From contig CAZDQS010000001.1 in assembly GCA_964507855.1 (NCBI GenBank), positions 102,121 through 166,120 on the forward strand: a DNA stretch of 64,000 bases, in the 5' to 3' direction. This DNA comes from an uncultured Candidatus Saccharibacteria bacterium (GTDB lineage Bacteria; Patescibacteriota; Saccharimonadia; Saccharimonadales; CAZDQS01). The translations under genes and the position numbers were made by a program. The notes under the pieces were generated by a model. That model ran no database searches and had not been told where the DNA came from. It saw only the letters and a program-made list of their open reading frames with translations. This document shows positions 11,650-40,138 of the stretch, one piece after another. Every line of letters starts with the position of its first letter. The stretch's first letter is position 1.

Positions 11650-11683
11650 CTTACACCTAGACTAATGACTGGCAGTGCGACTA

Positions 11684-11857
11684 ATCCAGGGCTTTGTTAT
11701 TAACTTCGAGCGTTTGCTTGGCGCAGTGTTGCCAAGAGTAGAGGGAAGCGACTTTTTGCCTTTGGTAATTAACTCTGTTTTAAGCTTTTCATCATCAAGT
11801 ATATCGGCGATTTTATCCGCCATGTCCTGGACATTGAGAAGGGCTAAGTAATGGAAT
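11684..11857 (-). pseudogene. remnant of a GT4 glycosyltransferase 3' end (duplicate of the 3' end of the gene at 13843..14946, frameshifted)
   Basis: 11703..11854 aligns by eye with 13865..14017 (about 14 substitutions and one 1-nt indel, T5 versus T6). The track ORF 11662..11913 translates to LNVQDMADKIADILDDEKLKTELITKGKK, compared with LNVQDMADKITEILDNEKLKTELITKGKK in the intact gene, then diverges after the indel. No N-terminal GT sequence is present. Confidence 0.75.
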
Positions 11858-11968
11858 TGGCGTAAAATTATATCAATTACATTAACCATATTAATACTGA
11901 TGGGTGGCCTCAATATACTTAAGAGACATATGAACCAAACAGCAGATTAGGAGTACAATGAAAATATT

Positions 11969-12580: not shown

Positions 12581-12596
12581 AAACAAACTATTGTAG

Positions 12597-13199: not shown

Positions 13200-13205
13200 G
13201 CTCTC

Positions 13206-13811
13206 TTGAATATGAGAAGATATAAAGCCAACAAGAAAAAAGTTTTACTATTCTTTATTCTATTTGCCGTCGGCACTTGGCTTCTAGTAGCCAATCTTAA
13301 CAGCCACAATCCCGGTCAAAAGACCAAGGAGCAGTTTGAGGATACTTTTGCCGCCCAAAAAGAGCTGCGCCAGCGGATAATTAACCAGTTCGGCGAACCC
13401 ATCTCGACGCGAGAAGAGAAGTCGTGTGGGTATGCATCACGTAAGTTCGAGAAAGGGCCGCTAGGGTGTGGAGTTCGTGTTTATCTATCATACGAAGTCA
13501 CTGATCATGAGGTAGCCGACAGACAAGCGCGACAAATAGATGAATTTGTTGGGCAGCAGACAGATGTGCTGACCAGGAGTAGCAATATATTTTTTATTGG
13601 ACCAGAGAAAAGATTTTCTCCACGTGAGCTCTCTGGTCGGCATCAGCAAGCGTCTGCTGGATTCGACTTTATAGACGAGAGTTTATTAGGGCTAAGTCTT
13701 TCATTTAATTATTACTTGGAGGAGGATTCCCGAGACAGGCTAGAGGTTGGATTAAGCGCTGGCGGAGAAGCGAGGGGTGAATTTTATCCCGTAAAAGAAA
13801 GCCCTTATTAG
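13206..13811 (+). CDS. membrane-anchored Cys-motif protein, paralog 4 of 4
   Basis: 201 aa from TTG 13206 (alternative ATG at 13212) with an anchor (VLLFFILFAVGTWLLV). It has the motif CGYASRKFEKGPLGCGVRV and the C-terminal GGEARGEFYPV. Confidence 0.6.
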   Translation: MNMRRYKANKKKVLLFFILFAVGTWLLVANLNSHNPGQKTKEQFEDTFAAQKELRQRIINQFGEPISTREEKSCGYASRKFEKGPLGCGVRVYLSYEVTDHEVADRQARQIDEFVGQQTDVLTRSSNIFFIGPEKRFSPRELSGRHQQASAGFDFIDESLLGLSLSFNYYLEEDSRDRLEVGLSAGGEARGEFYPVKESPY

Positions 13812-25535: not shown

Positions 25536-27711
25536 GAAAATTAAGAGCTACAGACCAAATATTTCTGCCTCAATTGGTACTATAAGCAGAGCACAAACAA
25601 TAGCTTATATTGGTGTACACGCCGCTATTTTCTTTACGTACCTTTTAGTTAGTCTTCGGTATAGTGGGCCGGCGTATTTGAGTGATGAGATGGGATACCT
25701 CAGCAAAGCGGCGGCAATTGCGGGATATCCCTCTGATATGGCAAGTAGCTGGCATGCTGGCTATTCTTTTTTGATTGCCCCGATCTTCGCTCTATTCTCT
25801 GACCCTTTTCTCATCTGGAAGGCCATTATGGTTGCGAATACAGCAATGTGGACCGTTAGTTTCATGGCACTTTTCTACATCTTGCGTCGGTTATTTGCAC
25901 AGAAGCCCTTCGAGGCAATCTTGGGGGCGGTAGCGGTTTCAGCAATCTATCCTAGTTGGGTGGTCATGAGCGGGTATGCATTTTCGACATCGGCGTTTGT
26001 GGTGGTGTTTATGCTGGCGCTCGCTGCTTTACTAAAAAGCGAACTAAAGAAAACTCCATACCTCTTACTTCATTCGGTATTAATAGGCTACCTATATTGG
26101 ATACATCCGGTAGGTATAGCTGCTGTGGCTGCCTCGGTGGGAATTTTTGTCATCAAAATGATTAAAGAGCGAAATGTATGGGGCCAACTTCCATATGTGT
26201 GCATACCCGTACTCATGGTTGCTGCGTATAGCCTCACCGTGCACCCGGGGTTATCCGACCTGATGACACCTGACAATTATGAGGCAAGCGCTCACTATAG
26301 GGATCCGTCGAGCTTTACTCGCAGGGTTGGTGAAGTTGAGTTTTGGAGACGTTGGGCAACCATATTTTTTGGACAGGCTTCATACTTGCTAATTGCAACA
26401 TTCGGCGTCATTGCTGTTGGGGTATGGGAAGTGATCACGAGGATCAAGAGAGAGATAAGAAACAAAGACTTTATAAAATCCATCACCAATGATGAGAGAT
26501 CTATGATATTGCTCGTAATGATTTTGTCTCTTCTAGGTATATTGATTATTGGATCGCTTAGCTTCACTCAAGGAAAAAGGATAAGGCCTGACCACTGGAT
26601 ATACGGAAGGTATGCGGAGATGGTAATTCTGCCCCTCATTGGAATCGGCATACTAGCGTGGTGGCGATTTAAGCAATTCTTCACGGCAATAACTGTGGTG
26701 TTGATAACTGGTCTTGCTCTCCGCGTTTCTGTTAACGGAGCTAACACCAATCTTGCTGATAATAATCTGGTAAATGTACAGTCCTTGTGGCCGCAGGCAT
26801 TTATTCACGATGTTCGGTTTTTATTATGGTTCGTGATGGGTGTGGGTGGCATCTTGCTTGTTAAAGTCTTAGGGAAGCGGTTTGCTCTTCTTGCAATCGT
26901 GCCGATTTATATCATTGCGATTAACTGGCAGGGTAAATGGCACAGTGACATTCTGACCTACTATAGCAATCCCTCAGGATTAGTGTCGGCCATGAGGTCT
27001 CAGGGGGCAGAGGATGCTTGTATTGGCTTCGACCCTAAGATGCCGTCCGGACGTCATCTTAGAGAGAGAGTCAAAATGTATTCATTCTATTTGTATGAGT
27101 TTATGCCTCAGAGGATGTCAGCGGAAGAGTGGCTCCAGAGTAGTTGTGATTACTACCTGACCTATGATTCAGATGTATTTATCGATAATCAGAGCGCAAC
27201 AGTTGTTGGAAAAGAGGAGTCCAACGGTCTTTATCTAGTGGTCAAGGCCGCTGAACTAGCTGAACTTAAGGGGGTTGAAAGTAGAGCAAATGACTTTTAT
27301 ATCAATACCCTTTCAGAGGACAGTGAATTATGCCTCGTGAAGGGGTGCTTTGGCAGGGGTGCTCGGCAGCTGGAGCCATTCCTGGGTGTAGGGCGTTATG
27401 ATAATGGTGCGATCGTAACGCAAGGTGTTGCAGGTTTTCTCTTCTCCGGTCCTTATGTTGGTCTGGCGCAGGGTGATTACATACTTACTATTGAGGGCGA
27501 ACTACACAATCTTAAGGGCGTCTTTATTGATCTTAAGGGTGGTGTTGACGCCGAACCATTTTTTGTAAAGAAACTTACGGGAGAGGGCGAGAGCACCATA
27601 AAAGTGCCTTTTTCTCTTAAGGAAGACATAAGTAATATAGAAATTCGTTTAGCGGTGAGCGAAGAGAGCGATATCTCGTTCAAAGAATACTATATAGAGG
27701 TACAGCAGTAG
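25528..27711 (+). CDS. polytopic membrane protein, possible GT-C-fold glycosyltransferase with C-terminal soluble domain
   Basis: About 727 aa from ATG 25528 (track TTG 25516). It has more than 10 TM segments and an acidic motif in the first loop (YLSDEMGYLSKAA) that resembles the GT-C DE motif. The last roughly 230 aa are non-membrane. Confidence 0.4.
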   Translation: MLKKIKSYRPNISASIGTISRAQTIAYIGVHAAIFFTYLLVSLRYSGPAYLSDEMGYLSKAAAIAGYPSDMASSWHAGYSFLIAPIFALFSDPFLIWKAIMVANTAMWTVSFMALFYILRRLFAQKPFEAILGAVAVSAIYPSWVVMSGYAFSTSAFVVVFMLALAALLKSELKKTPYLLLHSVLIGYLYWIHPVGIAAVAASVGIFVIKMIKERNVWGQLPYVCIPVLMVAAYSLTVHPGLSDLMTPDNYEASAHYRDPSSFTRRVGEVEFWRRWATIFFGQASYLLIATFGVIAVGVWEVITRIKREIRNKDFIKSITNDERSMILLVMILSLLGILIIGSLSFTQGKRIRPDHWIYGRYAEMVILPLIGIGILAWWRFKQFFTAITVVLITGLALRVSVNGANTNLADNNLVNVQSLWPQAFIHDVRFLLWFVMGVGGILLVKVLGKRFALLAIVPIYIIAINWQGKWHSDILTYYSNPSGLVSAMRSQGAEDACIGFDPKMPSGRHLRERVKMYSFYLYEFMPQRMSAEEWLQSSCDYYLTYDSDVFIDNQSATVVGKEESNGLYLVVKAAELAELKGVESRANDFYINTLSEDSELCLVKGCFGRGARQLEPFLGVGRYDNGAIVTQGVAGFLFSGPYVGLAQGDYILTIEGELHNLKGVFIDLKGGVDAEPFFVKKLTGEGESTIKVPFSLKEDISNIEIRLAVSEESDISFKEYYIEVQQ

Positions 27712-27717: not shown

Positions 27718-28836
27718 TTAATCTGTGCGCCCTACTGTGTGACGAGTAAATGTAGCGATTTTTTCAGCCATAGCATCCCAGCTGTTTTCCTGGCAGAATT
27801 TTTTGATGGCGGGTTTCATGGATTGTAGCTGCTTGCGGTCAATATTCTTTATTGCTGCTGCAAGATCTGCGGGGGAGTCGGGAGGTACGAGCCACCCGGT
27901 CTTATCCTCAATAACTGCGTCCTGCAACCCACCAACGCGACTGGCAATGACTGGCTTTTGATAGTTGTAAGCAAGCGTAACCACGCCACTACCGGTAGCC
28001 GAGAGATAGGGAAGGACTACGACGTCAGCTCGGGCAAAGTAGTTTGCTGCTTCTTGCTCGCTGACGTACTTCAAATGCGCTTCGACATTCGGTATGGCAG
28101 CAAGGCGGCTGCGCAAAACTTGCTCATTGTCCCATGTCTCGCCGACGATAGTTAAGTGGACCTCCTTATCATCCAACTGCGCGAGCGCTTCCAGCAGTAC
28201 ATCAAGACCCTTGTACGGTCGGATAAAACCGAAAAACAATAACTCGAGACGCCCGCGTTGCGCCAGTGTTTTATTGGGAGCAGGAAAGTGAGTGTAAATG
28301 GGATGGGGGCGCATGAGAATTTTAGTCCCAGGCTTGAGCTGCTCAAGAGCCTTCGCCTCTTCGGATGAATGCACAATATAGCCGTCAGCTTGTTTTAGGA
28401 ACCATTCGCTGAGGCGTCGTTTCAGGCCGGAGGTGTCATGGTCTACCAGGTTGTGGCAGAGAAAAACTGTTTTAATGCCGCGCTTACGCAGGCGCCGCGC
28501 AATAAAAGCAAATCCCGGCTGCCAGAACAATGTCCACCAACTAATGATTGCAACCTCACAATCAGAATGGGAAATGTGGCGGACAGTGCGCCACAGACTC
28601 AATGGTGAGTAAGCGTCTAGAATATAGGTGACATTCTTTTCTCGATGCTTGGCTGCTCTCTCGTCAATATCACTTTTGCCCGGATATAGAAAACGAGGAT
28701 ATTGCCGCTTGAAAGAGATGGTATGGAGAGTGGTGTAGTTAGCAAGTACGTGGTGCAGCTGTGTGGTGTACTGTGAGATACCGCCACGATATGGGGCAAC
28801 GGGTCCGATGAGTGCTATTTTTGTCCTCTTAGTCAT
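27718..28836 (-). CDS. glycosyltransferase family 4
   Basis: 372 aa with KIALIGPVAPYRGGISQYT at the N-terminus and a GT4 C-domain (VVLPYLSATGSGVVTLAYNYQKPVIASRVGG). Confidence 0.75.
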   Translation of the reverse strand: MTKRTKIALIGPVAPYRGGISQYTTQLHHVLANYTTLHTISFKRQYPRFLYPGKSDIDERAAKHREKNVTYILDAYSPLSLWRTVRHISHSDCEVAIISWWTLFWQPGFAFIARRLRKRGIKTVFLCHNLVDHDTSGLKRRLSEWFLKQADGYIVHSSEEAKALEQLKPGTKILMRPHPIYTHFPAPNKTLAQRGRLELLFFGFIRPYKGLDVLLEALAQLDDKEVHLTIVGETWDNEQVLRSRLAAIPNVEAHLKYVSEQEAANYFARADVVVLPYLSATGSGVVTLAYNYQKPVIASRVGGLQDAVIEDKTGWLVPPDSPADLAAAIKNIDRKQLQSMKPAIKKFCQENSWDAMAEKIATFTRHTVGRTD

Positions 28837-29743
28837 GTCCTGATGTCTGTCTATATGCTAGGCTTCTGGCGGTCAATGACTCAAGAAGTTCCATGTCACT
28901 TGCATAGAATTCCAAGAGCTGCTCATACAGCAGGTCATCTTTATTAAGCTTAGTGTCATCTGCCTTGGTATTCCACAAATTGATGGAGTACTCAACTCGC
29001 TTCCGTATAGGCTGGGGTGTAAGATTTTTCCAAAAAAACTTTACCAGCGGGACCTTAAACAAGAAGCCGGGCGTTAGCATTTTATAGCGTGGTCTTGCGC
29101 CACCTTGACGGTACTTTTTATTGGTGTTTGCTGGGGTGTAGTTATGGTTGATTTCTAGGAATTTACAAAGCGTACGTATGGTCTTAACGGGATCATCCCG
29201 CAGTTCGTCGGTTGTAAGTACGAGAATATTTTTTGCGGGGAACAAACTATAGTAGGTCTTTAATATCCGACCATACTCACTGCCGAAAATATAGTTAAAT
29301 TGCGGCTTGACCTTTTGTCTATAAGCAGATGGGTTAGTCAGGGACTGTTTAACGATCTCTTCAAACTCTTTATGTTCATGTCCTCTCTGTACCATCATCT
29401 TATAGTGCGAAAATGCGCGTTCTGCAGGATTTCTTAAGAGGGCCACAAGCTTGACATTTGGTAGTTCTTTTTTTATTCTTTCGGCAACAATCTGGGGGTT
29501 AGTATCCCCTTCGCCGAGCATGTATTGAGGAGTCACAGTCCCCCACAGTTTCTTTTCGTCAGCATCTGGGAAGTAGGCCTTTAAGTAGCGCTCCATGCCT
29601 TTTTTATAGACTTTATTATCACTAAAGTATGGTACCTCTTTGGCGCTCGGAATGTATATCTCAGGGTGGGATTTTATAAGCTCGTAGAGTGTTGTGGTGG
29701 CGGATTTTGCGGCACCAATCACAAGAAAGTCCAACTGTTTCAT
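28829..29743 (-). CDS. PAPS-dependent sulfotransferase
   Basis: 304 aa with a 5'-PSB loop (DFLVIGAAKSATTTLYELI) and a 3'-PB motif (LLRNPAERAFSHY). It overlaps the downstream GT4 by 8 nt. Confidence 0.75.
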   Translation of the reverse strand: MKQLDFLVIGAAKSATTTLYELIKSHPEIYIPSAKEVPYFSDNKVYKKGMERYLKAYFPDADEKKLWGTVTPQYMLGEGDTNPQIVAERIKKELPNVKLVALLRNPAERAFSHYKMMVQRGHEHKEFEEIVKQSLTNPSAYRQKVKPQFNYIFGSEYGRILKTYYSLFPAKNILVLTTDELRDDPVKTIRTLCKFLEINHNYTPANTNKKYRQGGARPRYKMLTPGFLFKVPLVKFFWKNLTPQPIRKRVEYSINLWNTKADDTKLNKDDLLYEQLLEFYASDMELLESLTARSLAYRQTSGHD

Positions 29744-29779
29744 GGTAACAGTTTAACCCAAAGGCTACCTATGCCATAA

Positions 29780-30748
29780 TTGGTAGTTATGTATAAGAGA
29801 GTTCTGCCGAAGCTGCTGACGGTTGGGTTTTTAGCGGCTTTTGGCTGGTTTTGGTATAAAAATCCAACAATCTTTTCACCACTCAAAGATATTTCTATAA
29901 GCACGATTGTGCTTATAGGGGTCGCCAAATCTGCATTTCATGTGGGTAACGGATTGTTCACCAAGTGGACAGCGGAGCACTTCACCCCGAGCAAGCTTAC
30001 ACTAGGAGAGAGTTATTATGTAGGTGTGCTAACGGCATTAGGAAATTTTTTTGGTCCTATTTTAGGAGGGACTAGCATTCGGGCCGTCTATTTGAAGAAG
30101 GTTCATAAACTTTCCTATAGTAAGTTCACCTCAACGCTCATCGGCTATTACCTGGTGCTGTTCACAACTACCTGCATTATGGCGCTTGGGGCACTTTTCG
30201 TTCTGCCAACCACACAACAGACAAATCTTCTTATTTTATTCTTTGGCCTTTGGCTGGTCATGATGCTGGCATTCTCGGTAATACGTTTGCCGGCCAAAAA
30301 TAAGCTTACTTTTGTGGCCAGCAATAAGTACATTGCTAAAATTGTGAACATAATTTATGAAATAGAGGACGGATGGAAGTTAATCTTGAGGAACCGTCGG
30401 CTCGTCTTAAGGCTCCTGATGCTTGCCCTTGGCATTTTTGTAGCAACGGTTATTATTACTTTCTTGGAATTTGATGCGATAGGATCATCGATTTCACTAC
30501 CTGGTGCAATAATGTTTTCAGTGCTAACCACAGTCGCTCTACTTATTAGCTTTACGCCAGGAGCAATTGGTGTCCGTGAGTCGATACTTCTTGTGGTAGG
30601 CGCGACGATGGGAGTTACTAACCAGCAAATACTTCAGGTTGCGGTGATTGATCGCGCTATAACATTCGGTCTCTTACTCGTACTATTTGTGACGACGAGG
30701 AGCAAAAAGTTAAAAAGGCTTTTCACGTCACGTGATATTCAGATTTAA
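29780..30748 (+). CDS. flippase-like membrane protein (UPF0104 / lysyl-PG-synthase TM-region family)
   Basis: 322 aa from TTG 29780 (alternative ATG 29789) with about 8 TM segments. The motif SFTPGAIGVRESILLVVG is typical of this family. Confidence 0.5.
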   Translation: MVVMYKRVLPKLLTVGFLAAFGWFWYKNPTIFSPLKDISISTIVLIGVAKSAFHVGNGLFTKWTAEHFTPSKLTLGESYYVGVLTALGNFFGPILGGTSIRAVYLKKVHKLSYSKFTSTLIGYYLVLFTTTCIMALGALFVLPTTQQTNLLILFFGLWLVMMLAFSVIRLPAKNKLTFVASNKYIAKIVNIIYEIEDGWKLILRNRRLVLRLLMLALGIFVATVIITFLEFDAIGSSISLPGAIMFSVLTTVALLISFTPGAIGVRESILLVVGATMGVTNQQILQVAVIDRAITFGLLLVLFVTTRSKKLKRLFTSRDIQI

Positions 30749-30806
30749 TCACAACAACCCTACGAGCTTGAGCGTGGTACATTTGATATGGACATAAGGA
30801 GGCTGG

Positions 30807-32534
30807 ATGACAACACATCTGAATGAGGCGCATGGCGGTAAGTTGGTAAACCTACTTGCAGGCAAAGAGAAAGCAGGCAAGCTTAAGAAAAAGGCAGCAG
30901 GCTATAAGTCCTGGAATCTTACGCATAGGCAACTCTGTGATGTAGAGATGATTCTTAATGGAGGCTTCTCTCCGCTTGAAGGATTCTTAAACAAAGATGA
31001 CTATGAGTCAGTTTGCAAAGACATGCGGCTTAAGGATGGCACGCTATGGCCTATGCCAGTCACGCTGGATGTAGACGAAGCTTTTGCGAAAAGCTTGAAG
31101 AAAGGCGAGCGAGTTGCCTTACGTGATCAAGAAGGAGTGGTGCTGGCAATCCTGGAGGTTGGTGACGTATGGAAGCCGAATAAACATAAAGAGGCTGAGC
31201 TTGTTTTTGGGGCAGATGACAAGGCCCATCCAACTGTTGCATATCTTCATGAGAAAGCTGGTGATTACTATGTCGGCGGAAAGCTGATAGGGCTGGAACT
31301 ACCGACACATTATGATTATCGGGATTTACGTCGGACACCCAAAGAGCTTCGTGAGCATTTTGCAAAGCTAGGCTGGACCAAGGTGGTTGCTTTTCAGACG
31401 CGCAATCCTATGCACCGGGCTCATGTTGAGTTGACGCTGCGTGCCGCCAAACAAACAGAGGCTAATTTGCTTATTCATCCCGTCGTGGGAATGACTAAGC
31501 CGGGAGACATTGATCACCATACCCGAGTTCGTGTCTATAAGGCTGTGCTGGAGCGGTACCCTGAATCAACTGCTATGATTTCACTCTTGCCGCTTGCCAT
31601 GCGTATGGGCGGTCCCCGTGAGGTGCTGTGGCACATGATTATTCGCAAGAACTATGGGGTGACGCATTTTATTGTTGGGCGTGACCATGCGGGGCCCGGC
31701 AACAACTCAAATGGCGAAAATTTCTACGGGCCATATGATGCGCAAGAGATGGCGCAAAAACATGCGGCTGAAATTGGTGTTGAAGTTGTTCCGTTCCAGA
31801 TGATGGTTTATGTTCAGGATCAGAATAAATATATGCCTATCGATGATGTGCCTAAAGGCATAGAGCCGATGACTATCTCAGGTACGCAATTGAGGGGCAT
31901 GCTGAAAGAAGGAAGAGGCTTGCCAGAGTGGTTTACCTATCCCGAGGTGGCGGAGGAGCTCCAAAAAACCCACAAACCGCGTCATGAACAGGGCCTCACA
32001 ATATTCTTTACCGGGCTTTCTGGGGCTGGTAAATCAACCATAGCAAATGCGCTCATGATCAAGTTGCTTGAGCAGGGGCGGCGTACAGTAACCTTACTGG
32101 ATGGTGATGTGGTGCGTAGTCACCTATCTTCCGAGCTTGGCTTTAGCAAAGAGCATCGTGATTTGAACGTCAAGCGTATAGGCTATGTCGCCTCCGAAAT
32201 ATCTCGGCATGGAGGTATTGCAGTGTGTGCGCCTATTGCTCCTTACGACAGTATAAGAAAAGAAGTGCGGAACATGGTGCGCGCCAATGGTGGGGGATTT
32301 ATATTGGTACATGTTGCGACGCCGCTAGAAGAATGTGAGAAGCGTGACCGTAAAGGGCTTTATGCTGCCGCCCGGGCGGGCAAGATAAAGGAGTTTACGG
32401 GCATTTCCGATCCGTATGAGGAGCCAAGCGATGCTGATATCGTGCTTGATACAGTTACCTATACGGCGGATGAGCTGGCTAACCAGATGCTGCTGTTCTT
32501 AGAAAAAGAAGGATTTATTAAGGCGCAAGCCTAG
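30807..32534 (+). CDS. bifunctional sulfate adenylyltransferase / adenylylsulfate kinase (PAPS synthase)
   Basis: 575 aa. ATP sulfurylase motifs: FQTRNPMHRAHVELT and HFIVGRDHAGPG. APS kinase P-loop: IFFTGLSGAGKSTIANAL. SD GGAGG lies upstream. Confidence 0.9.
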   Translation: MTTHLNEAHGGKLVNLLAGKEKAGKLKKKAAGYKSWNLTHRQLCDVEMILNGGFSPLEGFLNKDDYESVCKDMRLKDGTLWPMPVTLDVDEAFAKSLKKGERVALRDQEGVVLAILEVGDVWKPNKHKEAELVFGADDKAHPTVAYLHEKAGDYYVGGKLIGLELPTHYDYRDLRRTPKELREHFAKLGWTKVVAFQTRNPMHRAHVELTLRAAKQTEANLLIHPVVGMTKPGDIDHHTRVRVYKAVLERYPESTAMISLLPLAMRMGGPREVLWHMIIRKNYGVTHFIVGRDHAGPGNNSNGENFYGPYDAQEMAQKHAAEIGVEVVPFQMMVYVQDQNKYMPIDDVPKGIEPMTISGTQLRGMLKEGRGLPEWFTYPEVAEELQKTHKPRHEQGLTIFFTGLSGAGKSTIANALMIKLLEQGRRTVTLLDGDVVRSHLSSELGFSKEHRDLNVKRIGYVASEISRHGGIAVCAPIAPYDSIRKEVRNMVRANGGGFILVHVATPLEECEKRDRKGLYAAARAGKIKEFTGISDPYEEPSDADIVLDTVTYTADELANQMLLFLEKEGFIKAQA

Positions 32535-32541
32535 TTAGTAA

Positions 32542-33357
32542 ATGAAAGAACTTGATGATAGCGAACTCTTGCAGGAATTACTTGAGCGCGTAATCGAGAT
32601 CGCACAAATTGCCGGGGCAGCTATTCTGGAAGTATATGAGACGTCTGATGCTGAAGTCTCAATCAAAGATGACAATTCGCCCTTAACGAAGGCAGACAAG
32701 ACCGCTCATTCAATTATTGAAAGGAAGCTTCAGGCAATTAGCGACTTTCCGGTTATTTCTGAAGAAGGACGCCATGATGCCAGAGAGGCAGCTGTCTTTT
32801 GGTTAATTGATCCGCTTGATGGTACCAAAGAGTTTCTGAAGAGAAATGGCGAATTCACGGTCAACATTGCGCTCATCAAAGATGAGGTGCCAGTGCTGGG
32901 CGTGGTTTACGCGCCTGCCAAAGAATTATTGTATGCTGGCATAGTTTCTCGAGGCGCCTATAAGATTGTGGCAGGCAAGCGTCAAGAGATTACCTCTGTG
33001 TTTACTGGTGCGACACCAAAGATTCTTGTCAGTAGGTCACACCGGGATGCGTTGACTGAAACGTTACTACAAAAGATCGGGGAATACGAGGAGGCAAGCA
33101 GCGGATCGTCACTAAAGCTTTGCCTGGTGGCCGAAGGACGCGCAGCCCTTTATCCCCGCCTGGCGCCAACTTACGAGTGGGATACTGCAGCCGGCGATTG
33201 TGTCGTCCGTGCTGCTGGAGGAAAGGTACAAGATTTATATGGTCAGCCGTTACGGTACCATCCCCATGCTCAGAAGAATCCCTTTTTTGTTGTGTCGACG
33301 GGGAATGATGAATGGTTTCAAGTCTTTCGTAACGAGCTAAAAGATTTTGCCTCGTAG
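32542..33357 (+). CDS. cysQ: 3'(2'),5'-bisphosphate nucleotidase
   Basis: 271 aa with inositol-monophosphatase-family motifs (ISEEG, WLIDPLDGTKEF, WDTAAGDCVV). It lies directly after the PAPS synthase gene. Confidence 0.85.
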   Translation: MKELDDSELLQELLERVIEIAQIAGAAILEVYETSDAEVSIKDDNSPLTKADKTAHSIIERKLQAISDFPVISEEGRHDAREAAVFWLIDPLDGTKEFLKRNGEFTVNIALIKDEVPVLGVVYAPAKELLYAGIVSRGAYKIVAGKRQEITSVFTGATPKILVSRSHRDALTETLLQKIGEYEEASSGSSLKLCLVAEGRAALYPRLAPTYEWDTAAGDCVVRAAGGKVQDLYGQPLRYHPHAQKNPFFVVSTGNDEWFQVFRNELKDFAS

Positions 33358-33358: not shown

Positions 33359-34297
33359 TTATTTATACTGAAGTCTCTTTAGCCGCTCCAGGGCGTCTTC
33401 TGCCAATGTGCGATTGGTGCGGATGAGATCTGCAATGATGGCTAGTGTGAAGGCGATGATGGATGCGAAGAGTAAGACGGCTCCAAGGAGCAGGGACTGG
33501 ATGTGATCGCCACGATCACCCTGTATGTAGATGATAGCGTAACGTGCAAATGGTGCCAGGCCACCGACAAGCAATAGAGTACCAAGGCTAAAGAAGAGTA
33601 GGTGAGGGCGGTACATGATATAGCTGCGGATAATCGCTGCGCTGGATTTGTACATGTGCTGCCAAATATTTTTAAACAGACGTGATTCACGAGTTTTTGG
33701 GTTGGTTTCTATTTTTATGCTGGTAATTGGAATACGTTTGTTGCCAGCCTGGATAATTGTTTCCATGCAGTAGCTAAACTGCGTAATGATGTTAATCCGC
33801 AGGAGCGCTTCTTTGGAATAGGCACGAAAGCCGCTGGCTGCATCCGGAATATTCGTACGCGCTGCTTTGTTGACGACCCAGCTGCCGAAGCGCTGCATGA
33901 GCTTCTTGAAGCCCGAGAAGTGTGCAATGGTGGCGGTTTGTCGGTCGCCAACAACAATCTCAGCTTCGCCGTTTAATATCGGCTGCACGAGGTCACCGAT
34001 ACGCTCTTGGGGATACTGATTGTCGCCATCGGTGTTTACTACGATGTCGGCACCAATGCCTAGTGCGTAATTAATGCCATCATGGAATGAGCGTGCTAAG
34101 CCCATGTTCTTTGGGTGTCGGACAAAGTGTTTGACACCATAGTGCTTGGCGACCTCTATGGTCTTATCGGTCGAGCCGTCATCAATAATAAGGACGACAA
34201 TCTCATTAATGCCTTTAATTTTCTTAGGAATAGACTCTAACACTAAAGGGAGCGTTTTCTCCTCATTGAGGCAGGGGATTTGTACAACAAGCTTCAT
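33359..34297 (-). CDS. GT2 polyprenol-phosphate glycosyltransferase (GtrB/DPM1-like) with C-terminal TM helices
   Basis: 312 aa with VVQIPCLNEEKTL, LIIDDGSTDKT and NTDGDNQYP (DxD region), plus two C-terminal TM segments. Confidence 0.8.
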   Translation of the reverse strand: MKLVVQIPCLNEEKTLPLVLESIPKKIKGINEIVVLIIDDGSTDKTIEVAKHYGVKHFVRHPKNMGLARSFHDGINYALGIGADIVVNTDGDNQYPQERIGDLVQPILNGEAEIVVGDRQTATIAHFSGFKKLMQRFGSWVVNKAARTNIPDAASGFRAYSKEALLRINIITQFSYCMETIIQAGNKRIPITSIKIETNPKTRESRLFKNIWQHMYKSSAAIIRSYIMYRPHLLFFSLGTLLLVGGLAPFARYAIIYIQGDRGDHIQSLLLGAVLLFASIIAFTLAIIADLIRTNRTLAEDALERLKRLQYK

Positions 34298-34299: not shown

Positions 34300-35691
34300 T
34301 TAGTTTCCGTTCTTACTTCCGTTTCTTCCTACTCCAAGATATTGTAACCCACTCTTTTCTACCTCTGAAATATTAAACGAATTCATGCAATCAACGAAAA
34401 GCTTGCCGGACATGTTTTTGCGAACTGCCGTAAGATCAAGCTTGAGAAACTCATCCCATGCAGTGGCCACAAAGACAGCATCCGCATCCGTAAGCGCCTC
34501 TTGGGCCGTTTTACATAATTTGACCTCGCGGCGTAGCTCGGGGCCTGCTTCTTCTGAAGCTTTAGGGTCATAGGCACGCACCTGCGCCTTATTCTTGGCA
34601 AGGATGTTTGCCAGGAAAACTGCTGGCGATTTCCGGGCATCACTCGTATTTGCCTTAAATGCCAGACCGAGCACAGCGCATTTTTTATCTTTCAGTTCGC
34701 CCAAAACGTCTTTTGCCTTATTGACAATGTAGCCGGGCATGGTTTCGTTGACTTCGGTTGCGGCTCGTAAGATCTGCATATCGATCCCATGTTTGGTTGC
34801 GCTGTCGATCAGTCCGCTGACATCCTTAGGGAAACAGCCGCCGCCATACCCCCGGCCGGCATTGAGAAATGCTCTGCCGATGCGACGGTCGGCGCCAACA
34901 GCATCCATGACCTCGTTAACGTCCGCGTTGGTGCTGTCGGCAAGCTTGGCGATGGTATTGGCAAAGGAGATTTTAAGGGCCAAAAAGGCATTGGCGGTAA
35001 CTTTTATTAGCTCTGCGCTGTTTCGTGTGGTGATGAAGTACGTGCCTGCTGCTGCGGCAGCGGTTGGTTTAGAGGCACCGCTTAATTGTGAAAGATCGGC
35101 CTTGTGGTGCTCGATTGCTTTGTACAGTTCGCTTACCATCGTGGCGGCGCGACCATCCTCGCTGCCGCAGACGACACGGTCGAACCAAATGGTGTCGGCC
35201 AGGGCGCTGCCTTCACGCAAGAACTCGGGATTTGAAACATAGGTTATGGTTGTGCCATGCTGGCGGGCCAGGTCCTCGAGCTGCTGGCCGGTTCCGACCG
35301 GGACGGTGCTTTTTTGGATAAAGATTGCGTCTTCCCTGACAAGGGGGAGGCATGACTGAAAAGCTTCGAATACGTAGGTCAGGTTTGGACTGCCGTCTGG
35401 GTTGTCTGGTGTCCCGACGCAGGAGAATATAAATTTGCTTTCGGGTATGGCGGTAGCGTAGGAACGTGTCGGGAGTAGCATGGTGGAGTCAACAGCTTTG
35501 CGGACGAGGTTGTTGATGCCCGGTTCGTAAAACCAGGCCTTCCCGTTTTTGATAACATTCAGGCGCTGTTGATTCGGGTCTATGAGGTAGACCCTAAACC
35601 CGCTATTTGCAAACACAGCGGCGGTGGTTAGGCCGACATAGCCGGCACCTAGTACAGTAATGGTTTTATCAGGACTATGTGAAACTGTCAT
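34300..35691 (-). CDS. nucleotide-sugar 6-dehydrogenase (UDP-glucose/GDP-mannose dehydrogenase family)
   Basis: 463 aa with an N-terminal Rossmann fold (ITVLGAGYVGLTTAAVFANSG) and a catalytic-Cys context (GYGGGCFPKDV). Confidence 0.8.
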   Translation of the reverse strand: MTVSHSPDKTITVLGAGYVGLTTAAVFANSGFRVYLIDPNQQRLNVIKNGKAWFYEPGINNLVRKAVDSTMLLPTRSYATAIPESKFIFSCVGTPDNPDGSPNLTYVFEAFQSCLPLVREDAIFIQKSTVPVGTGQQLEDLARQHGTTITYVSNPEFLREGSALADTIWFDRVVCGSEDGRAATMVSELYKAIEHHKADLSQLSGASKPTAAAAAGTYFITTRNSAELIKVTANAFLALKISFANTIAKLADSTNADVNEVMDAVGADRRIGRAFLNAGRGYGGGCFPKDVSGLIDSATKHGIDMQILRAATEVNETMPGYIVNKAKDVLGELKDKKCAVLGLAFKANTSDARKSPAVFLANILAKNKAQVRAYDPKASEEAGPELRREVKLCKTAQEALTDADAVFVATAWDEFLKLDLTAVRKNMSGKLFVDCMNSFNISEVEKSGLQYLGVGRNGSKNGN

Positions 35692-35853
35692 GAGGAATTG
35701 TATCTATTGTACCGCATGTCAAATAAGAGGTGCAGCAGTAGCTAGTTAGGGCAGGAGTAGTGTATGATTATGTAAGGCATTAGCCCAATAGGCACGAACA
35801 GTATAGTCCGGGACAAGCGCGCCGGGGAAACGAAGTCGTTCGCATCTGAAATT

Positions 35854-36999
35854 ATGAAGATTTTGCATTTTACTACTCACAATGAAGATTGTGGTATCGC
35901 CAAGTATCAAGAGCAGTTTATTGCTGCTATGCATACGGTTGGCGGCGTAGAACATACAGTTTTTGAGTATTCGCCAAACGTCACCAAGCACATGAGCGAG
36001 GCTGAATTTACCCCCGTGCTCAAGCAGCTGGTTGCCCAAATGCGTGATCAAGACATTTTGCACATTCAGCACGAGATCTCTTTCTTTAAGAAGAATGAAC
36101 TTTACCGGGTCGTCAAAGCTGTGCGCAGGATGCGCAAGAAAGTCATGATGACTGTCCACACGGCTCCCGACGCGATGTATAAGGAGCCGAAGCTGGAAGG
36201 GTATGGCCCTCGCAGCTGGTTGAAATATCTCCGAGCGATGAAGGCTGCACGTGAATTCACGGATGTTCATATCCGTCCTATGCGCGAAGTTGATCTGGTA
36301 ATTGTTCACAATACGGTTACCAAAAAGAATCTCATGAAGCATGGGGTCAAGGAAGATCGCATACGGATTATCGATATGCCGGTGCCAAACATCTCCTTTG
36401 AACGTACATCGACAGTCATCAAGAAGGCGCTTGATTATCGGTCCGGTGATGTTTTGTTTTGTGCTGTCGGCTTCGTGTCGAAAACCAAAGGGTTTGACCA
36501 TGCTGTAAAAGCACTCAATTTCCTGCCGAAAAATTACAAATTGGCCATCATCGGGGGCATGCATCCTGAGGGCAGGAATGACAAATACTTGGATAAACTA
36601 TGCGACATAATTGCGGAGTATGGGTTGCAGGACAGGGTATATATTACGGGCTTCTTGGCAGACGATGAGGAGCTCAATGCTGCTATACGAGAGTGTGATA
36701 TATGTGTTTACCCGTACGACAGAGAATATTACTCTTATGTGTCGTCAGCATCTTTGAGCAATGCCCTCGCAAATCATAAGCCTACGGTAGCTTACCCGAC
36801 CGCTTCTTTCCGTGAGGTAAATTCTGAAATGGATGTGCTGGCTCTTACGAAGTCATTTAATTATTACGAGCTTGCCCGGGAGATACGGGCAATTGATGTG
36901 CCTTCTCGACACGAAAAATCCAAGCAGTACGCACAACTTCATGCCTACGATAAAGAAGGCGAAAAGTTCATTGATATCTACCAGCAGCTTATAGCCTAG
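35854..36999 (+). CDS. glycosyltransferase family 4
   Basis: 381 aa with MKILHFTTHNEDCGIAKY at the N-terminus and the C-domain VGFVSKTKGFDHAVKAL...YITGFL... Confidence 0.7.
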   Translation: MKILHFTTHNEDCGIAKYQEQFIAAMHTVGGVEHTVFEYSPNVTKHMSEAEFTPVLKQLVAQMRDQDILHIQHEISFFKKNELYRVVKAVRRMRKKVMMTVHTAPDAMYKEPKLEGYGPRSWLKYLRAMKAAREFTDVHIRPMREVDLVIVHNTVTKKNLMKHGVKEDRIRIIDMPVPNISFERTSTVIKKALDYRSGDVLFCAVGFVSKTKGFDHAVKALNFLPKNYKLAIIGGMHPEGRNDKYLDKLCDIIAEYGLQDRVYITGFLADDEELNAAIRECDICVYPYDREYYSYVSSASLSNALANHKPTVAYPTASFREVNSEMDVLALTKSFNYYELAREIRAIDVPSRHEKSKQYAQLHAYDKEGEKFIDIYQQLIA

Positions 37000-39518
37000 G
37001 GCTTGACGACGAATTTCCAGTGAAGGCCAACGTCATTGAGCCAAGCGACACCGTCTATTACAGGCCGGAAGTATTCATTATATGTTCCTGTTGAGGCTGG
37101 AGTTTTAACAGAGAACTCGAACGTGCCTATCTCGCCTGGTCTTACTTTTGATTCTTTCAACCGAGCGGCGCGGTTGCAATTAATCCAGGAATTGTCACAG
37201 AAGCTACTTATTCGATCCACTGGGTTGCTGGTGCCGAGCCGGGTGCTGCTTGACCAGTTCCGGCCGCTGATGTTCTTTGCCCGTAGGCGCAGGTAATACG
37301 TTGTATTCGGTTTTGCATCATTAAGATTGGCTGCTTGCGTGCGATTGCTATCGAGGAAGGTCTGCTGCCCTTGGTACTCCCAGACGAAATCAGGAGAATC
37401 CATCTTAAAGGTAATGTGCTGGCCCAGGTCGTTCATCCACATTTTACCTTCCGCAACCGGCCGGAAGTATTCGCTGAAACTGGTGCCGTCGAGTGCGTAC
37501 GGCGCCTTGGCCCAGAATTCAAATGTGCCGATTTCTCCTGGAGCGACAGATGTTTCGGTAATTGCGGTAGGGCGGTTACAGCTTCCCCATGAGGGGTCAC
37601 AGAATTTACTTGGTCGGTCAATTGGCACGTTCGTGCCCAGCCGGACTGGATTCGATCCACTCTTTTGCCACGTGACGTTGCCGGTGTTTTGGGCGCGGAT
37701 CACAACGTAGACCCGCTGGTTGCCGCTTATAGCATTGATATTGGCAGCCTCGGCTTTTGTGCTATCTGTGTAGACTGCTTGTCCGGCGAACTTCCAGGCA
37801 TAAGTCGGAGGTTTGACTGATAGCGCCCAGTGCTGGCCCAGGTCGTTCATCCAGGCCTTGCCTTCAGCAACTAGCCTGAAGTACTCCTTAAATTCGCCGT
37901 GACGATTTGGAGTCGTGATAGAGAAATTAAAGGTTCCAATCCCGCCGGGTTCAACACTGGATTCTTGGAGAGCGGTAGGGCGATTGCAGCTTCCCCAGGA
38001 GCCATTACAGAAGGCACTGTTTCGGTCAATCGGTACATTCGTGCCCAACCGGACTGGGTTCGACCCGCTCTTTTGCCATGTGACGTTGCCGGTATTGCGA
38101 GCTTTAAGCTGGAGGTGGTACGTGGTATTGGGGGCTAGCAGCTTTGGGTTTACGGGTACAGTACGGTCACTGTCGGCATGAATCGATTGTCCGGCAAAGC
38201 TCCATTGATAGGTTGATGGTTTGATGCCGAAGCTCCAGTGAAAGCCGATATCGTTCATCCAGGCCTCACCCTCTGCTAGCAGGTTGAAATATTCGTGGTG
38301 AGTACCGTGATTTGACGGTGTTTTAATCGAGAATTCAAAGGTTCCGGTGCCACCAGGGAGTACTTCAGCTTCTTTGAGTTTGGCAGCCCGATTGCAGCCG
38401 AACCATGATTTGTCACAAAAGATACTTGCGCGCTCTCCCGGATGGCTCGTTCCGAGCATGACGGGGTTGGCGCCGCTGTTCTTCCATGTCCTGTTGCCAG
38501 TGTTTTTGGCAGTTACACGCGCATAGTATGTTGTATCAGGAGATAGCAAGCCTGGGTTGACTGGCTTGGTCCGGGCTTCATCGACATAAACTTGTTGATT
38601 GACTCTCCACCATGAGTAATTCGGTGCATAGGTAGAGCCAAACCAGTCGTTAAAGAGGCGCCAAAAGTTACGGTTACCGTAGGCGCTACAAGCATCACCG
38701 GTTCCATAGAGATGCTGGAGGGCAGCGGCGTTTGGCTGATAAGGGGTGTAGTTGTATAGACCGGCGGTAGCGGCAGTTTGCATGGTGAGGTTAGTGCCTC
38801 CGCACCCGGGGGCATTGGCCTGATATGCGACAAAACTAGTTCTCCCGAGTGCATGGTTAAAATCTTCTGGGAACAGTTTGTATCTTTGGAATTGTTTAGC
38901 TGCATTGTAGACCTGATTGAAAAAGCCCGCATAGTCAGGGTGGCACCATCCGGGATTGTTTGGATCATCGGGGCAGTAGTATCCCATGGCTTTTTCGTAC
39001 TGCACAGGCCATGGCCAATCGTCAGTCACTAGGCTTTGTTCCTTTTCGAGCATGACAATGAGGGCTTTTTGGCTGATGTTGCATGCCCTAGCAACGGTGT
39101 CGATAATTTGCGCCGCGCTGCGGTTACTAGCTGCGCTAATGTGTGAACATAGCCCTGAGTCTGATCGAGCGTTGTAGCTACCCACATAATCTTTTAGGCA
39201 GGTGAAGGGTGTCGAAATGCCCCGCCGCTGGCTGTATACCTTTCGCGTTACGGTATCGTTGTGCGTGGGGTCAAAGACTAGTTTATTACCTTGGGTGTCG
39301 CACGAGGGTACTTTTGAGTTGAGGAAATTCTGGATCTCAGCTGCCGTCAAAGCATTGCCGTTATAGAATACGGCATCATCAATGATCCGATTGGCGACAA
39401 AATCACTACCTGAAAGTGCGGAAGCATGCGGGTTTGCTACGGTCATGACCACCGTTAGCGACGAAAGCGTTGCTGCCGCAAGGAGGAGTAAATTTTGTAT
39501 TGAAAATATTTTCCGCAT
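36996..39518 (-). CDS. secreted protein: conserved N-terminal domain plus four tandem beta-sandwich-like repeats of about 115-135 aa (possibly NBR1-like Ig domains)
   Basis: 840 aa with a signal peptide (MRKIFSIQNLLLLAAATLSSLTVVMTVANPHASA). Four repeats each contain NTGN.TW...G.NPV.LGT..P.DR.S.FC...W..CNR......V.PG..GTF.F...P......EYF.....G..WMND.G. Confidence 0.6.
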   Translation of the reverse strand: MRKIFSIQNLLLLAAATLSSLTVVMTVANPHASALSGSDFVANRIIDDAVFYNGNALTAAEIQNFLNSKVPSCDTQGNKLVFDPTHNDTVTRKVYSQRRGISTPFTCLKDYVGSYNARSDSGLCSHISAASNRSAAQIIDTVARACNISQKALIVMLEKEQSLVTDDWPWPVQYEKAMGYYCPDDPNNPGWCHPDYAGFFNQVYNAAKQFQRYKLFPEDFNHALGRTSFVAYQANAPGCGGTNLTMQTAATAGLYNYTPYQPNAAALQHLYGTGDACSAYGNRNFWRLFNDWFGSTYAPNYSWWRVNQQVYVDEARTKPVNPGLLSPDTTYYARVTAKNTGNRTWKNSGANPVMLGTSHPGERASIFCDKSWFGCNRAAKLKEAEVLPGGTGTFEFSIKTPSNHGTHHEYFNLLAEGEAWMNDIGFHWSFGIKPSTYQWSFAGQSIHADSDRTVPVNPKLLAPNTTYHLQLKARNTGNVTWQKSGSNPVRLGTNVPIDRNSAFCNGSWGSCNRPTALQESSVEPGGIGTFNFSITTPNRHGEFKEYFRLVAEGKAWMNDLGQHWALSVKPPTYAWKFAGQAVYTDSTKAEAANINAISGNQRVYVVIRAQNTGNVTWQKSGSNPVRLGTNVPIDRPSKFCDPSWGSCNRPTAITETSVAPGEIGTFEFWAKAPYALDGTSFSEYFRPVAEGKMWMNDLGQHITFKMDSPDFVWEYQGQQTFLDSNRTQAANLNDAKPNTTYYLRLRAKNISGRNWSSSTRLGTSNPVDRISSFCDNSWINCNRAARLKESKVRPGEIGTFEFSVKTPASTGTYNEYFRPVIDGVAWLNDVGLHWKFVVKP

Positions 39519-39520
39519 AG

Positions 39521-40138
39521 CTACTTGATACTTATTACCATTGCTTCTGAATTACCTTCGTGGCGGGGAGAGGAGTATTGTATAACTGCTCTCCATTCGC
39601 CAGCATCTAATTGACTTCTGCTGATAGCAATGCGGCCACAAACGGTACTCTGCGCATCAGGGATAGCACGTTTGGCTTCAGAAGTTGTGGTGCCGGCTTT
39701 CTGTAGGATGAGCTTGCATGTGCCTTCGGTTTCTACAATACCTGGTACGTATCCGTTGGCCTCTACATCACCATTGCTAGCCTGCTGGATATAGCCAATG
39801 ATGGGGGTTACTGCCTGTTTGGGTTCTGTTGTGTCTGGTGTATCGCCCTCGTCTTGCTGCGGGTTTTCAGAGTTTTCGCTCAACTGCTGTTTATGGCGTT
39901 CAACTCGTTCCTTATCTTCGTCGGTTGCTGGGGCAAGATTGGTTGTGCCGCCGCCGCTGTCAATAACCGATTCAGATTCCGGTGCGCTGTCTCTGTCCTG
40001 TAATGTTCTATACAGTAAAAATGAGCTAGCGCCTAACAAGGCCACGAGTATTACTATGGCAAGCCATTTTGTCTTTTTGTGTTTTGATGTGGAGTGCAAT
40101 TTCATACGCATCCTACTTTTGTGTTTTTGAATGAACAA
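39521..40138 (-). CDS. hypothetical membrane-anchored / secreted protein
   Basis: 205 aa with an N-terminal anchor (WLAIVILVALLGASSFLLY), an acidic low-complexity linker and a C-terminal domain with two Cys. Its stop lies 2 nt upstream of the start of the 840-aa gene on the same strand. Confidence 0.4.
   Translation of the reverse strand: MFIQKHKSRMRMKLHSTSKHKKTKWLAIVILVALLGASSFLLYRTLQDRDSAPESESVIDSGGGTTNLAPATDEDKERVERHKQQLSENSENPQQDEGDTPDTTEPKQAVTPIIGYIQQASNGDVEANGYVPGIVETEGTCKLILQKAGTTTSEAKRAIPDAQSTVCGRIAISRSQLDAGEWRAVIQYSSPRHEGNSEAMVISIK

Follow-up and report, generated by a model that had tools for sequence, protein, structure and literature searches.

In rhizobia (NodPQ/NodH and LpsS) and in mycobacteria (CysDNC/Stf0), the supply of 3'-phosphoadenosine 5'-phosphosulfate (PAPS) goes together with a glycoconjugate sulfotransferase. 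A 64-kb stretch of the genome of an uncultured Candidatus Saccharibacteria bacterium (contig CAZDQS010000001.1, positions 102,121 to 166,120; hereafter the window) encodes, side by side, a sulfotransferase (ST), a fused ATP sulfurylase/adenosine 5'-phosphosulfate (APS) kinase (Sat-CysC), the nucleotidase CysQ and a membrane protein of the UPF0104 family. Here, we document the gene identities, catalytic motifs and operon layout of this cassette and its conserved synteny in ten Saccharibacteria-type genomes. With moderate confidence, we propose that it combines a dedicated PAPS supply with the cytoplasmic sulfation of a lipid-linked envelope saccharide, which is then flipped across the membrane. 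Saccharibacteria with the cassette probably carry a sulfated surface glycan.

As in the rhizobial and mycobacterial systems, PAPS would serve to sulfate a surface or secreted glycoconjugate, and a CysQ-type enzyme is needed to remove the by-product 3'-phosphoadenosine 5'-phosphate (PAP). However, the PAPS enzymes of these systems are of the CysD/CysN-CysC GTPase type, whereas the window encodes a homo-oligomeric-type Sat-CysC fusion. Furthermore, their modules lack a flippase, the window ST is not an Stf0 protein (PF09037), and its nearest rhizobial relatives are only ~30% identical and lie on pSymB-type replicons, not on the nodH plasmid.

Sulfation that precedes translocation has been described in the 'low-salt' N-glycosylation pathway of Haloferax volcanii (Agl5-Agl15), in which a hexose bound to dolichol phosphate (DolP) is sulfated before translocation, with a contribution of Agl7; sulfation may even be needed for flipping (PMC3892788). 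The likeness to the window would consist in cytoplasmic-side sulfation on a polyprenol-phosphate carrier followed by translocation, in a family 2 glycosyltransferase (GT2) of the Dol-P-sugar synthase kind and nucleotide-sugar enzymes alongside, and in UPF0104 domains, which are tied to such archaeal pathways (PMC5898192). In contrast, the Haloferax pathway is archaeal, targets an Asn of the surface-layer protein and has no PAPS-synthesis genes in its cluster, whereas the window is from a bacterium, with an envelope of the Gram-positive type.

Two bacterial systems are also comparable. In Pseudomonas aeruginosa, gpgSDF encodes a family 4 glycosyltransferase (GT4), a head-group-modifying enzyme and a UPF0104 protein, which together produce glucosamine-phosphatidylglycerol; as in hexSDF of Clostridioides difficile, the cytoplasmic GT4, the cytoplasmic modifier and the UPF0104 protein are encoded together (PMC12713373), and the window shares this arrangement. 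However, the modifier in gpgSDF and hexSDF is a deacetylase that yields a cationic lipid, whereas the window has a sulfotransferase, for which an anionic product is expected; in addition, the window operon has its cofactor supply (Sat-CysC and CysQ) built in, and its GT4 is not a GpgS equivalog. The xss cluster of Synechocystis, which makes the sulfated exopolysaccharide synechan (PMC8205485), likewise embeds PAPS-dependent sulfotransferases in a polysaccharide locus of a bacterium. It differs in being a Wzx/Wzy-type exopolysaccharide locus of a free-living phototroph with full sulfur metabolism, without a dedicated Sat-CysC/CysQ pair and without UPF0104. The cassette described here thus differs from known systems in its Sat-CysC fusion, in the presence of CysQ and often of its own anion permease, in the flippase-family gene within the operon, and in its occurrence in a lineage of the candidate phyla radiation (CPR). 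We found no description of it for Saccharibacteria or Patescibacteria in open-access papers and bioRxiv.

Gene products and their layout

ST (28829-29743, minus strand, 304 amino acids [aa]) matches the sulfotransferase families PF00685 (E = 2.3e-16; 60.4 bits, cut-off 22) and PF13469 (51.1 bits, cut-off 27). Both motifs quoted for it in the original prediction, GAAKSATTTL (residues 10-19) and RNPAERAFSHY (residues 104-114), are present. In an alignment of 33 family members, K13 of the 5'-phosphosulfate-binding (5'-PSB) loop IGAAKSATTTL (residues 9-19) is kept in at least 90% of the sequences, whereas E36 as well as R104, P106, R109 and S112 of the 3'-phosphate-binding (3'-PB) motif LLRNPAERAFSHY are invariant. 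When aligned with the heparan sulfate (HS) 3-O-sulfotransferase 3-OST-1, K13 coincides with the PSB-loop lysine, R104 and S112 fall on the Arg and Ser of LRDPSERVLSDY (3'-PB), and E36 falls on the catalytic Glu of 'ENEVHFF' in the structure 3UAN. The catalytic base is Glu90 in 3-OST-1 and Glu642 in NST-1. The loss of PAPS-binding residues, named beforehand as an observation that would refute the sulfation module, is therefore not seen: K13, R104 and S112 are all retained.

A search of the Protein Data Bank (PDB) with the 33-member profile retrieved 3RNL, an uncharacterised bacterial sulfotransferase structure from Alicyclobacillus (1.3e-46), followed by HS 3-OST and NDST enzymes at ~1e-25. The AlphaFold model generated from the alignment (pLDDT 89.4, pTM 0.88) gave a corresponding order in Foldseek, with 3RNL on top (1.9e-14) and 3-OST-1, 3-OST-3, 3-OST-5 and NDST1 at 1e-10 to 1e-8 (TMq 0.61-0.67), whereas TPST, SULT and CurM were found at 1e-5 or weaker (TMq ~0.4). 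By its modelled fold, ST would be a carbohydrate-type enzyme that is closest to HS 3-O-/N-sulfotransferases and stands apart from the tyrosylprotein, cytosolic and CurM types. ST shares three features with these best matches in sequence and structure (HS 3-OSTs, NDST and 3RNL): the lysine of the 5'-PSB loop, the Glu that acts in catalysis, and Arg and Ser of the 3'-PB motif. However, the identity is only 18-22%, and the bacterial family alone has a very basic C-terminal region at residues ~200-260. In ST, this insert (residues 200-260), which the animal enzymes lack, is rich in aromatic residues and contains 13 Lys/Arg as compared to 1 Asp/Glu, which is only suggestive of a membrane-proximal or anionic acceptor.

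No match of ST to Stf0 (PF09037) was obtained, PF00685 and PF13469 being the only families reported at E <= 0.001, and no Stf0 structure was among the 50 lowest-E Foldseek matches listed. The suggested comparison with NodH, Stf0 and LpsS was thus only partly apt, since the likeness to Stf0 did not hold and the nearest enzymes are the animal HS sulfotransferases and 3RNL. Searches with tblastn detected genes ~29-31% identical to ST in an unannotated region of Sinorhizobium/Ensifer pSymB-type replicons, as well as matches on Synechocystis plasmids. As the region of the S. meliloti pSymB homologue carries no annotation, we abandoned the idea of connecting ST with any named enzyme of rhizobia. A hydropathy scan of ST revealed no transmembrane (TM) helix, hydrophobic segment or signal sequence, and the enzyme should therefore be active in the cytoplasm, the site of PAPS synthesis.

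The 575-aa Sat-CysC (30807-32534, plus strand), which comprises PUA_2, ATP-sulfurylase and APS_kinase domains, scored 922.1 bits against NF004040 (cut-off 669), with residues 5-572 covering positions 5-571 of the 572-position model. Based on its sequence, it is predicted to be a bifunctional ATP sulfurylase/APS kinase that converts sulfate and 2 ATP to PAPS. The motifs QTRNPMHRAH, GRDHAG, GLSGAGKST (P-loop) and LDGD are all present. Its best PDB match is the Penicillium chrysogenum ATP sulfurylase (1I2D), the C-terminal kinase-like domain of which is regulatory. In the alignment with 1I2D, GLSGAGKST is opposed to GYMNSGKDA and LDGD to LLGD, and the bifunctional Aquifex enzyme 2GKS was matched at 8.9e-184. 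Judged by these motifs, the kinase domain appears to keep a canonical, catalytically competent form, unlike the non-catalytic fungal domain. CysQ (32542-33357, plus strand, 271 aa), a 3'(2'),5'-bisphosphate nucleotidase, scored 265.6 bits against TIGR01331 (cut-off 228.8) and contains the metal-binding motifs DPLDGT and WDTAAG; it is predicted to hydrolyse the PAP by-product.

The UPF0104 protein (29780-30748, plus strand, 322 aa; also LPG_synthase_TM or 'PplT', the MprF flippase domain) matches PF03706 with 77.4 bits (cut-off 33.4) and the 'flippase-like domain' model TIGR00374 with 46.8 bits (cut-off 43.2), and a crude hydropathy scan identified six hydrophobic segments. A UPF0104 domain fused to the Dol-P-sugar synthase AglD is a predicted flippase (PMC5898192). 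The gene starts with TTG, with an ATG 9 nt downstream, and is the leading gene of an operon: it is separated by 58 nt from Sat-CysC, which is followed after 7 nt by CysQ, and all three are divergent from ST. On the minus strand, the start of the GT4 gene (27718-28836, 372 aa) and the stop of the ST gene share 8 nt, and because of this overlap ST and GT4 are likely co-translated. The span (28829-33357) and the gene layout given earlier are thereby confirmed. UPF0104 had also been named correctly, but its place as an integral, co-transcribed member of the cassette was under-read.

GT4 is a cytoplasmic glycosyltransferase (Glyco_trans_1_4, Glycos_transf_1 and Glyco_transf_4) with only generic GT4 matches in NCBIfam. 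Against the GpgS model NF053787, it reached 48 bits (cut-off 480) in the generic C-terminal domain only, and is thus not a GpgS equivalog. Directly beyond CysQ lie two further genes on the minus strand. GT2 (33359-34297, 312 aa) has PF00535 over residues 6-165 and two C-terminal TM helices (233-251 and 270-288); its best NCBIfam matches, AglJ, PpgS and Dol-P-hexose transferase, are all below the cut-off, and we assign it to the polyprenyl-phosphate sugar synthase type (GtrB/ArnC/AglJ/PpgS-like, of the GtrB/ArnC/DPM type) as a prediction. Located 2 nt upstream of GT2, a UDP-glucose (nucleotide-sugar) 6-dehydrogenase (UGDH; 34300-35691, 463 aa) scored 384 bits against TIGR03026 (cut-off 190), followed by TuaD and AglM below the cut-off; it would supply a uronic acid.

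The cassette in related genomes

The DnaA protein encoded in the window is 78-83% identical to many proteins, and all those with a name are from Candidatus Saccharibacteria or Saccharimonadales, which places the window in the Saccharimonadales and agrees with the earlier assignment to a reduced-genome lineage. Relatives of the cassette were sampled in two ways. Based on ST, the nearest species-representative genomes were five Candidatus Saccharibacteria metagenome-assembled genomes (40-54% identity), and contig look-ups added L082, from a marine Saccharibacterium with the gene set of L001, and L086. A metagenome scan for ST relatives gave only a few more close ones, mostly on short contigs. 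To avoid the circularity of picking loci by ST, the second sampling started from Sat-CysC alone and yielded L168-L171, situated on long contigs (0.66-1.13 Mb) with neighbours not known beforehand; among them, L170 is the complete 1.13-Mb genome CP060232.1. For Sat-CysC, there were more than 100 cluster representatives at 65-83% identity, and the named closest ones were nearly all from Saccharibacteria or Saccharimonadales.

The cassette was found in ten Saccharibacteria-type genomes (the window, L082/L001, L002, L004, L005, L086 and L168-L171), and consists of Sat-CysC, CysQ, a flippase gene, one or two sulfotransferases, a nucleotide-sugar dehydrogenase and GT2, often with an SLC13-type permease. 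The loci sampled from ST (L082/L001, L002, L004, L005 and L086) share UGDH, GT2, CysQ, Sat-CysC, the flippase and ST as a single block; in L002, L004 and L005, the identities amount to 65-73% for Sat-CysC, 51-57% for CysQ, 66-78% for GT2 and 53-61% for UGDH. All four loci sampled from Sat-CysC contain UPF0104, one or two sulfotransferases and CysQ within ~3 kb of Sat-CysC, as well as a nucleotide-sugar dehydrogenase and a membrane-anchored GT2, and are part of rhamnose/mannose glycan loci. CysQ adjoins Sat-CysC in eight of the nine relatives, whereas in L169 it lies 1.8 kb downstream, past toxin-antitoxin-like open reading frames (ORFs). Orthologues of GT2 (66-79% identity) occur in L002-L005, L082, L086, L169 and L170, and syntenic orthologues of the dehydrogenase (52-61% identity) in eight loci. 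The conserved unit as first described was therefore too small, and the neighbouring dehydrogenase and GT2 also belong to it.

The flippase slot is occupied by UPF0104 in seven genomes (the window, L082, L002 and L168-L171) and by a Wzx/MOP-type protein in three (L004, L005 and L086), never by both. UPF0104 orthologues at 48-50% identity hold the same position in L168 and L171, and more divergent members are found in L082, L002, L169 and L170. The flippase gene adjoins ST on its Sat-CysC side, with one unassigned ORF between UPF0104 and ST in L169; in L086, the GT2, Wzx and ST genes overlap and run in the same direction.

Four cassettes encode a 585-aa SLC13/CitMHS (Na_sulph_symp) permease with two TrkA_C domains (L002:3622-5379, L005:4251-6008, L082:4664-6421 and L169:14270-16030), irrespective of the type of flippase, whereas the window contains no counterpart. 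This permease is a likely candidate for a sulfate importer. We had also considered UPF0104 as the missing sulfate importer. This was rejected for three reasons: three genomes have both UPF0104 and the SLC13-type permease, UPF0104 and Wzx exclude one another, and UPF0104 is paired with ST where Sat is not nearby.

The variable part of the cassette is ST. The sulfotransferases of L168-L171 are 0-31% identical to that of the window, while UPF0104, Sat-CysC and CysQ stay orthologous, as expected of a strain-variable decoration of a surface glycan. A second, unrelated sulfotransferase is encoded in L002 (9120-9893, Sulfotransfer_2) and L171 (8025-8858, weak Sulfotransfer_3), which implies that sulfate is placed at more than one position or on more than one acceptor. 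GT4 is not kept either: orthologues with 53-55% identity adjoin ST in L002, L086 and L091, whereas L003-L005 and L168-L171 have TagF-like or other glycosyltransferases instead.

The pairing of ST with UPF0104 extends beyond Saccharibacteria. In L083-L085, ST homologues 49-54% identical to that of the window are encoded on contigs of 69-71% guanine-plus-cytosine (GC) content with actinobacterial markers such as Lsr2; each of them adjoins UPF0104, and neither PAPS genes nor glycosyltransferases were found nearby. In a rough neighbour-joining tree without support values, these sequences nest inside the Saccharibacteria-type ones, which hints at a possible movement of the ST-UPF0104 unit between epibiont and host lineages. 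Around more distant ST relatives (28-40% identity) from Solirubrobacterales and Gammaproteobacteria, UPF0104 is absent within 10 kb, and several are located beside Wzx-like genes. A separate case is L081 (P0004), where an ST that is among the nearest homologues (60% identity) stands alone; no glycan or PAPS genes were found around it, and its contig, which encodes a sigma-54 activator and a CHASE4/PAS histidine kinase, is probably not from a Saccharibacterium.

Proposed sulfation route and alternative explanations

In the route that we favor, Sat-CysC would convert sulfate to PAPS in the cytoplasm, and the soluble ST would transfer the sulfate to a sugar still held by a lipid carrier in the membrane. 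This acceptor would most probably be a polyprenyl-phosphate-linked, uronic-acid-containing sugar or short saccharide made by the dehydrogenase, GT2 and GT4. CysQ would remove PAP, which is inhibitory, and the MprF-type UPF0104 protein, co-transcribed with Sat-CysC and CysQ, would flip the sulfated lipid-linked product outward, where a membrane transferase would add it to a wall glycan or another surface acceptor. Since PAPS is cytoplasmic, a sulfate ester at the surface must be formed before export. We infer a lipid-linked acceptor and a flipping step because one and the same slot is taken by either of two unrelated families of flippases, because ST pairs with UPF0104 even where the other genes are missing, and because GT2 and the uronic-acid-forming dehydrogenase are always alongside; the wall glycan or other final acceptor is inferred as well. 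A more specific form of this route, in which a polyprenyl-phosphate sugar is sulfated in the cytoplasm, flipped by UPF0104 or Wzx and then used as a 'sulfo-sugar' donor for glycosylation outside the membrane, is conceivable but doubtful.

The outside-acting enzyme may be encoded next to GT4. A polytopic membrane protein of 731 aa (25516-27711, plus strand, ~11-12 TM segments by its TM profile), the gene of which is convergent on GT4, belongs to no Pfam or NCBIfam family and has a C-terminal domain of ~265 aa. PMT_2-like GT-C proteins of 679-691 aa are found in the equivalent place beside GT4 in L001/L082 and L086. From this position, the 731-aa protein is a tentative candidate for a GT-C-like transferase.

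Several observations weigh against the proposed route. Neither the single sequence of UPF0104 nor an 11-member profile gave a meaningful match to a solved structure in the PDB, its single-sequence AlphaFold model (pLDDT 53.5) is unusable, and that stand-alone UPF0104 proteins act as flippases is a prediction and not a demonstrated fact, even for GpgF (PMC12713373). In phmmer, the 731-aa protein had no detectable similarity to the PMT_2-like proteins of related loci, and the window contains no recognisable sulfate transporter. Since GT4 and the ST subfamily vary between genomes, the acceptor probably differs among strains. The scan of positions 27-36.5 kb for promoters and terminators yielded numbers close to those in shuffled sequence (13 versus 12.8 promoters and 10 versus 9.0 terminators). 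Finally, an assimilatory branch may be encoded elsewhere in the genome, and the literature searched contained no report of a sulfated glycan or lipid from Saccharibacteria.

Among the alternatives, the one that survives best is a sulfated membrane glycolipid: GT4 would glycosylate diacylglycerol or phosphatidylglycerol, ST would sulfate the head group and UPF0104 would flip the product, in a module similar to gpgSDF and hexSDF. The contiguity of GT4, ST and UPF0104, the overlap of ST and GT4, and the ST-UPF0104 pairs without glycosyltransferases in L083-L085 fit such a module, and the basic, hydrophobic insert of ST would fit a membrane surface. The precedents are gpgSDF, with its GT4, deacetylase and UPF0104 protein (PMC12713373), and MprF, the founding member of the family, which flips a modified phospholipid (PMC5898192; bioRxiv 10.1101/2022.03.11.483950). 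However, the GT4 of the window reaches only a tenth of the GpgS cut-off (48 of 480 bits) and is replaced in L003-L005 and L168-L171, whereas the dehydrogenase and the membrane-anchored GT2 are always present. Moreover, Wzx-type flippases, which take the place of UPF0104 in three genomes, are known for polyprenyl-diphosphate-linked saccharides. Because GT4 is neither conserved across the cassettes nor a GpgS equivalog, we rank the glycolipid below the lipid-linked saccharide and regard it as rather unlikely.

Alternatively, ST might decorate an undecaprenyl-diphosphate-linked polysaccharide of cytoplasmic origin, or cap its non-reducing end, before the polymer is exported by Wzm/Wzt (18178-20221), with UPF0104 in an unrelated role. 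The ST-GT4 operon abuts the block of Wzm/Wzt and glycosyltransferases (22032-25535), more distant ST homologues occur in polysaccharide loci, and Wzt contains a Wzt_C domain, a type of domain by which the cap at the chain end is recognised in Escherichia coli O9a. Such sulfation at the level of the polymer appears improbable, as Wzm/Wzt were not found in the ~20-kb neighbourhoods of the other nine cassettes, the WbdD-like methyltransferase/kinase encoded right after wzt is a more obvious terminator, and both the constant UPF0104-or-Wzx slot and the UPF0104-SatCysC-CysQ operon would be left unexplained.

Sat, CysC and CysQ are the opening steps of sulfur assimilation in many bacteria, and they might feed a PAPS reductase and a sulfite reductase encoded elsewhere, the neighbourhood of ST being incidental. 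The search for an assimilatory branch covered the 64 kb of the window, out of a contig of 309.8 kb, and stretches of 17-22 kb in the nine relatives. In a Pfam scan of the window ORFs of at least 110 aa, minus those mostly inside longer ones, there was no match to PAPS/APS reductase, sulfite reductase, CysK or CysE, in accordance with the original prediction that assimilatory genes are missing here; similarly, no cysH, sir, cysK or cysE was found in the stretches from L002, L004, L005, L082, L086 and L168-L171. Furthermore, Sat-CysC is always located in a glycan locus and accompanied there by a sulfotransferase and a flippase, and Saccharibacteria are generally incapable of de novo amino acid synthesis. 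We thus consider ordinary assimilation very unlikely, and the earlier proposal that PAPS serves the sulfation of a glycan or glycolipid is supported, with which the residues and fold of ST, the kinase motifs and the ten cassettes in glycan loci are consistent. Some bacterial sulfotransferases use PAPS to modify peptides and secondary metabolites, but a tyrosine residue of a protein, a small metabolite or a molecule from the host as acceptor of ST is just as hard to credit, given that the TPST, cytosolic and CurM enzymes are far weaker matches (E ~1e-5, TM ~0.4) than the HS sulfotransferases (E ~1e-10, TM ~0.65) and that the genomic context is wholly one of glycan biosynthesis.

The surrounding locus and its meaning for Saccharibacteria

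The window is located near the chromosomal origin, since recF, dnaN, dnaA, rnpA, yidC and jag are all within its first 8 kb. Apart from these genes, the Pfam scan revealed almost exclusively envelope-glycan genes, and no tRNA or Rfam family was detected in the 64 kb. The glycan genes encode Gmd, a reductase/epimerase, Wzm, Wzt with Wzt_C, a WbdD-like methyltransferase-kinase, several GT4 and GT2 enzymes, GtrA-fused polytopic proteins, ManC, a PMM-like phosphatase, GalE and GlmS, as well as a Bac_transf priming transferase, a Wzy_C protein and UppP. At 18178-21702, Wzm (ABC2_membrane), Wzt with Wzt_C and a 494-aa protein with methyltransferase and kinase-like domains have the architecture known for the chain terminator WbdD of E. 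coli O9a, and point to a glycan that depends on an ABC transporter and is capped at its end in this Saccharibacterium. Between 40268 and 47634, two polytopic proteins with an N-terminal GtrA domain (685 and 721 aa) are each encoded beside a GT2; an amine-oxidase-like flavoprotein is also encoded among the genes of this region, and a separate small GtrA lies at 56372-56809. These sets suggest that several systems for glycosylation outside the membrane, based on polyprenyl-phosphate sugars, are combined in one locus.

Beyond the dehydrogenase, a secreted protein of 840 aa, in which NBR1-like Ig domains (PF16158) are repeated, is encoded at 36996-40138, with a 205-aa membrane-anchored protein upstream. 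Its orthologues (32-47% identity) accompany the cassette in L001, L002, L004, L005, L082 and L086, and it may be a surface protein that is functionally tied to the glycan. A 272-aa ORF at 35746-36564 (minus strand) lies largely inside the GT4 gene 35854-36999 on the opposite strand and most likely represents a shadow ORF rather than a true gene. Closer to the origin, four tandem paralogous ORFs of 173-203 aa (11128-13811; mutual identity of 25-43% over local alignments) belong to no Pfam family; each has an N-terminal membrane anchor, three of the four have two conserved Cys, and the stretch is low in GC (0.43 as compared to ~0.50). Furthermore, an ORF of family PF05635 ('23S rRNA-intervening sequence protein') is situated between recF and dnaN (2373-2717).

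In surveys, the sat and cysC genes of Saccharibacteria and other members of the CPR were counted as 'sulfate reduction capacity' (PMC10413278), and it is probably these same cassette genes that automated pathway calls score as sulfate reduction. The context of the cassette argues for PAPS-dependent sulfation of the envelope and alters the reading of sat/cysC in CPR surveys. Since the genomes of Saccharibacteria and other CPR bacteria are very small, a cassette of seven or more genes for one surface modification represents a real investment. The mechanism itself will not surprise glycobiologists, but it is unreported for Saccharibacteria. The cassette also offers a handle on stand-alone UPF0104 proteins, a poorly understood family that is here in an operon with PAPS synthesis, paired with ST across phyla and replaceable by Wzx.

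If the more specific form of the route, with a 'sulfo-sugar' donor, is correct, sulfate esters would be placed on a bacterial surface without extracellular PAPS, which has so far been documented only for haloarchaeal dolichol-linked glycans, and interchangeable sulfotransferases would give strain-specific sulfated surface codes. The cassette predicts that an epibiotic lineage with an almost unknown surface chemistry carries a sulfated glycoconjugate with uronic acid on its surface, and such a sulfated surface could matter for the attachment to host cells.

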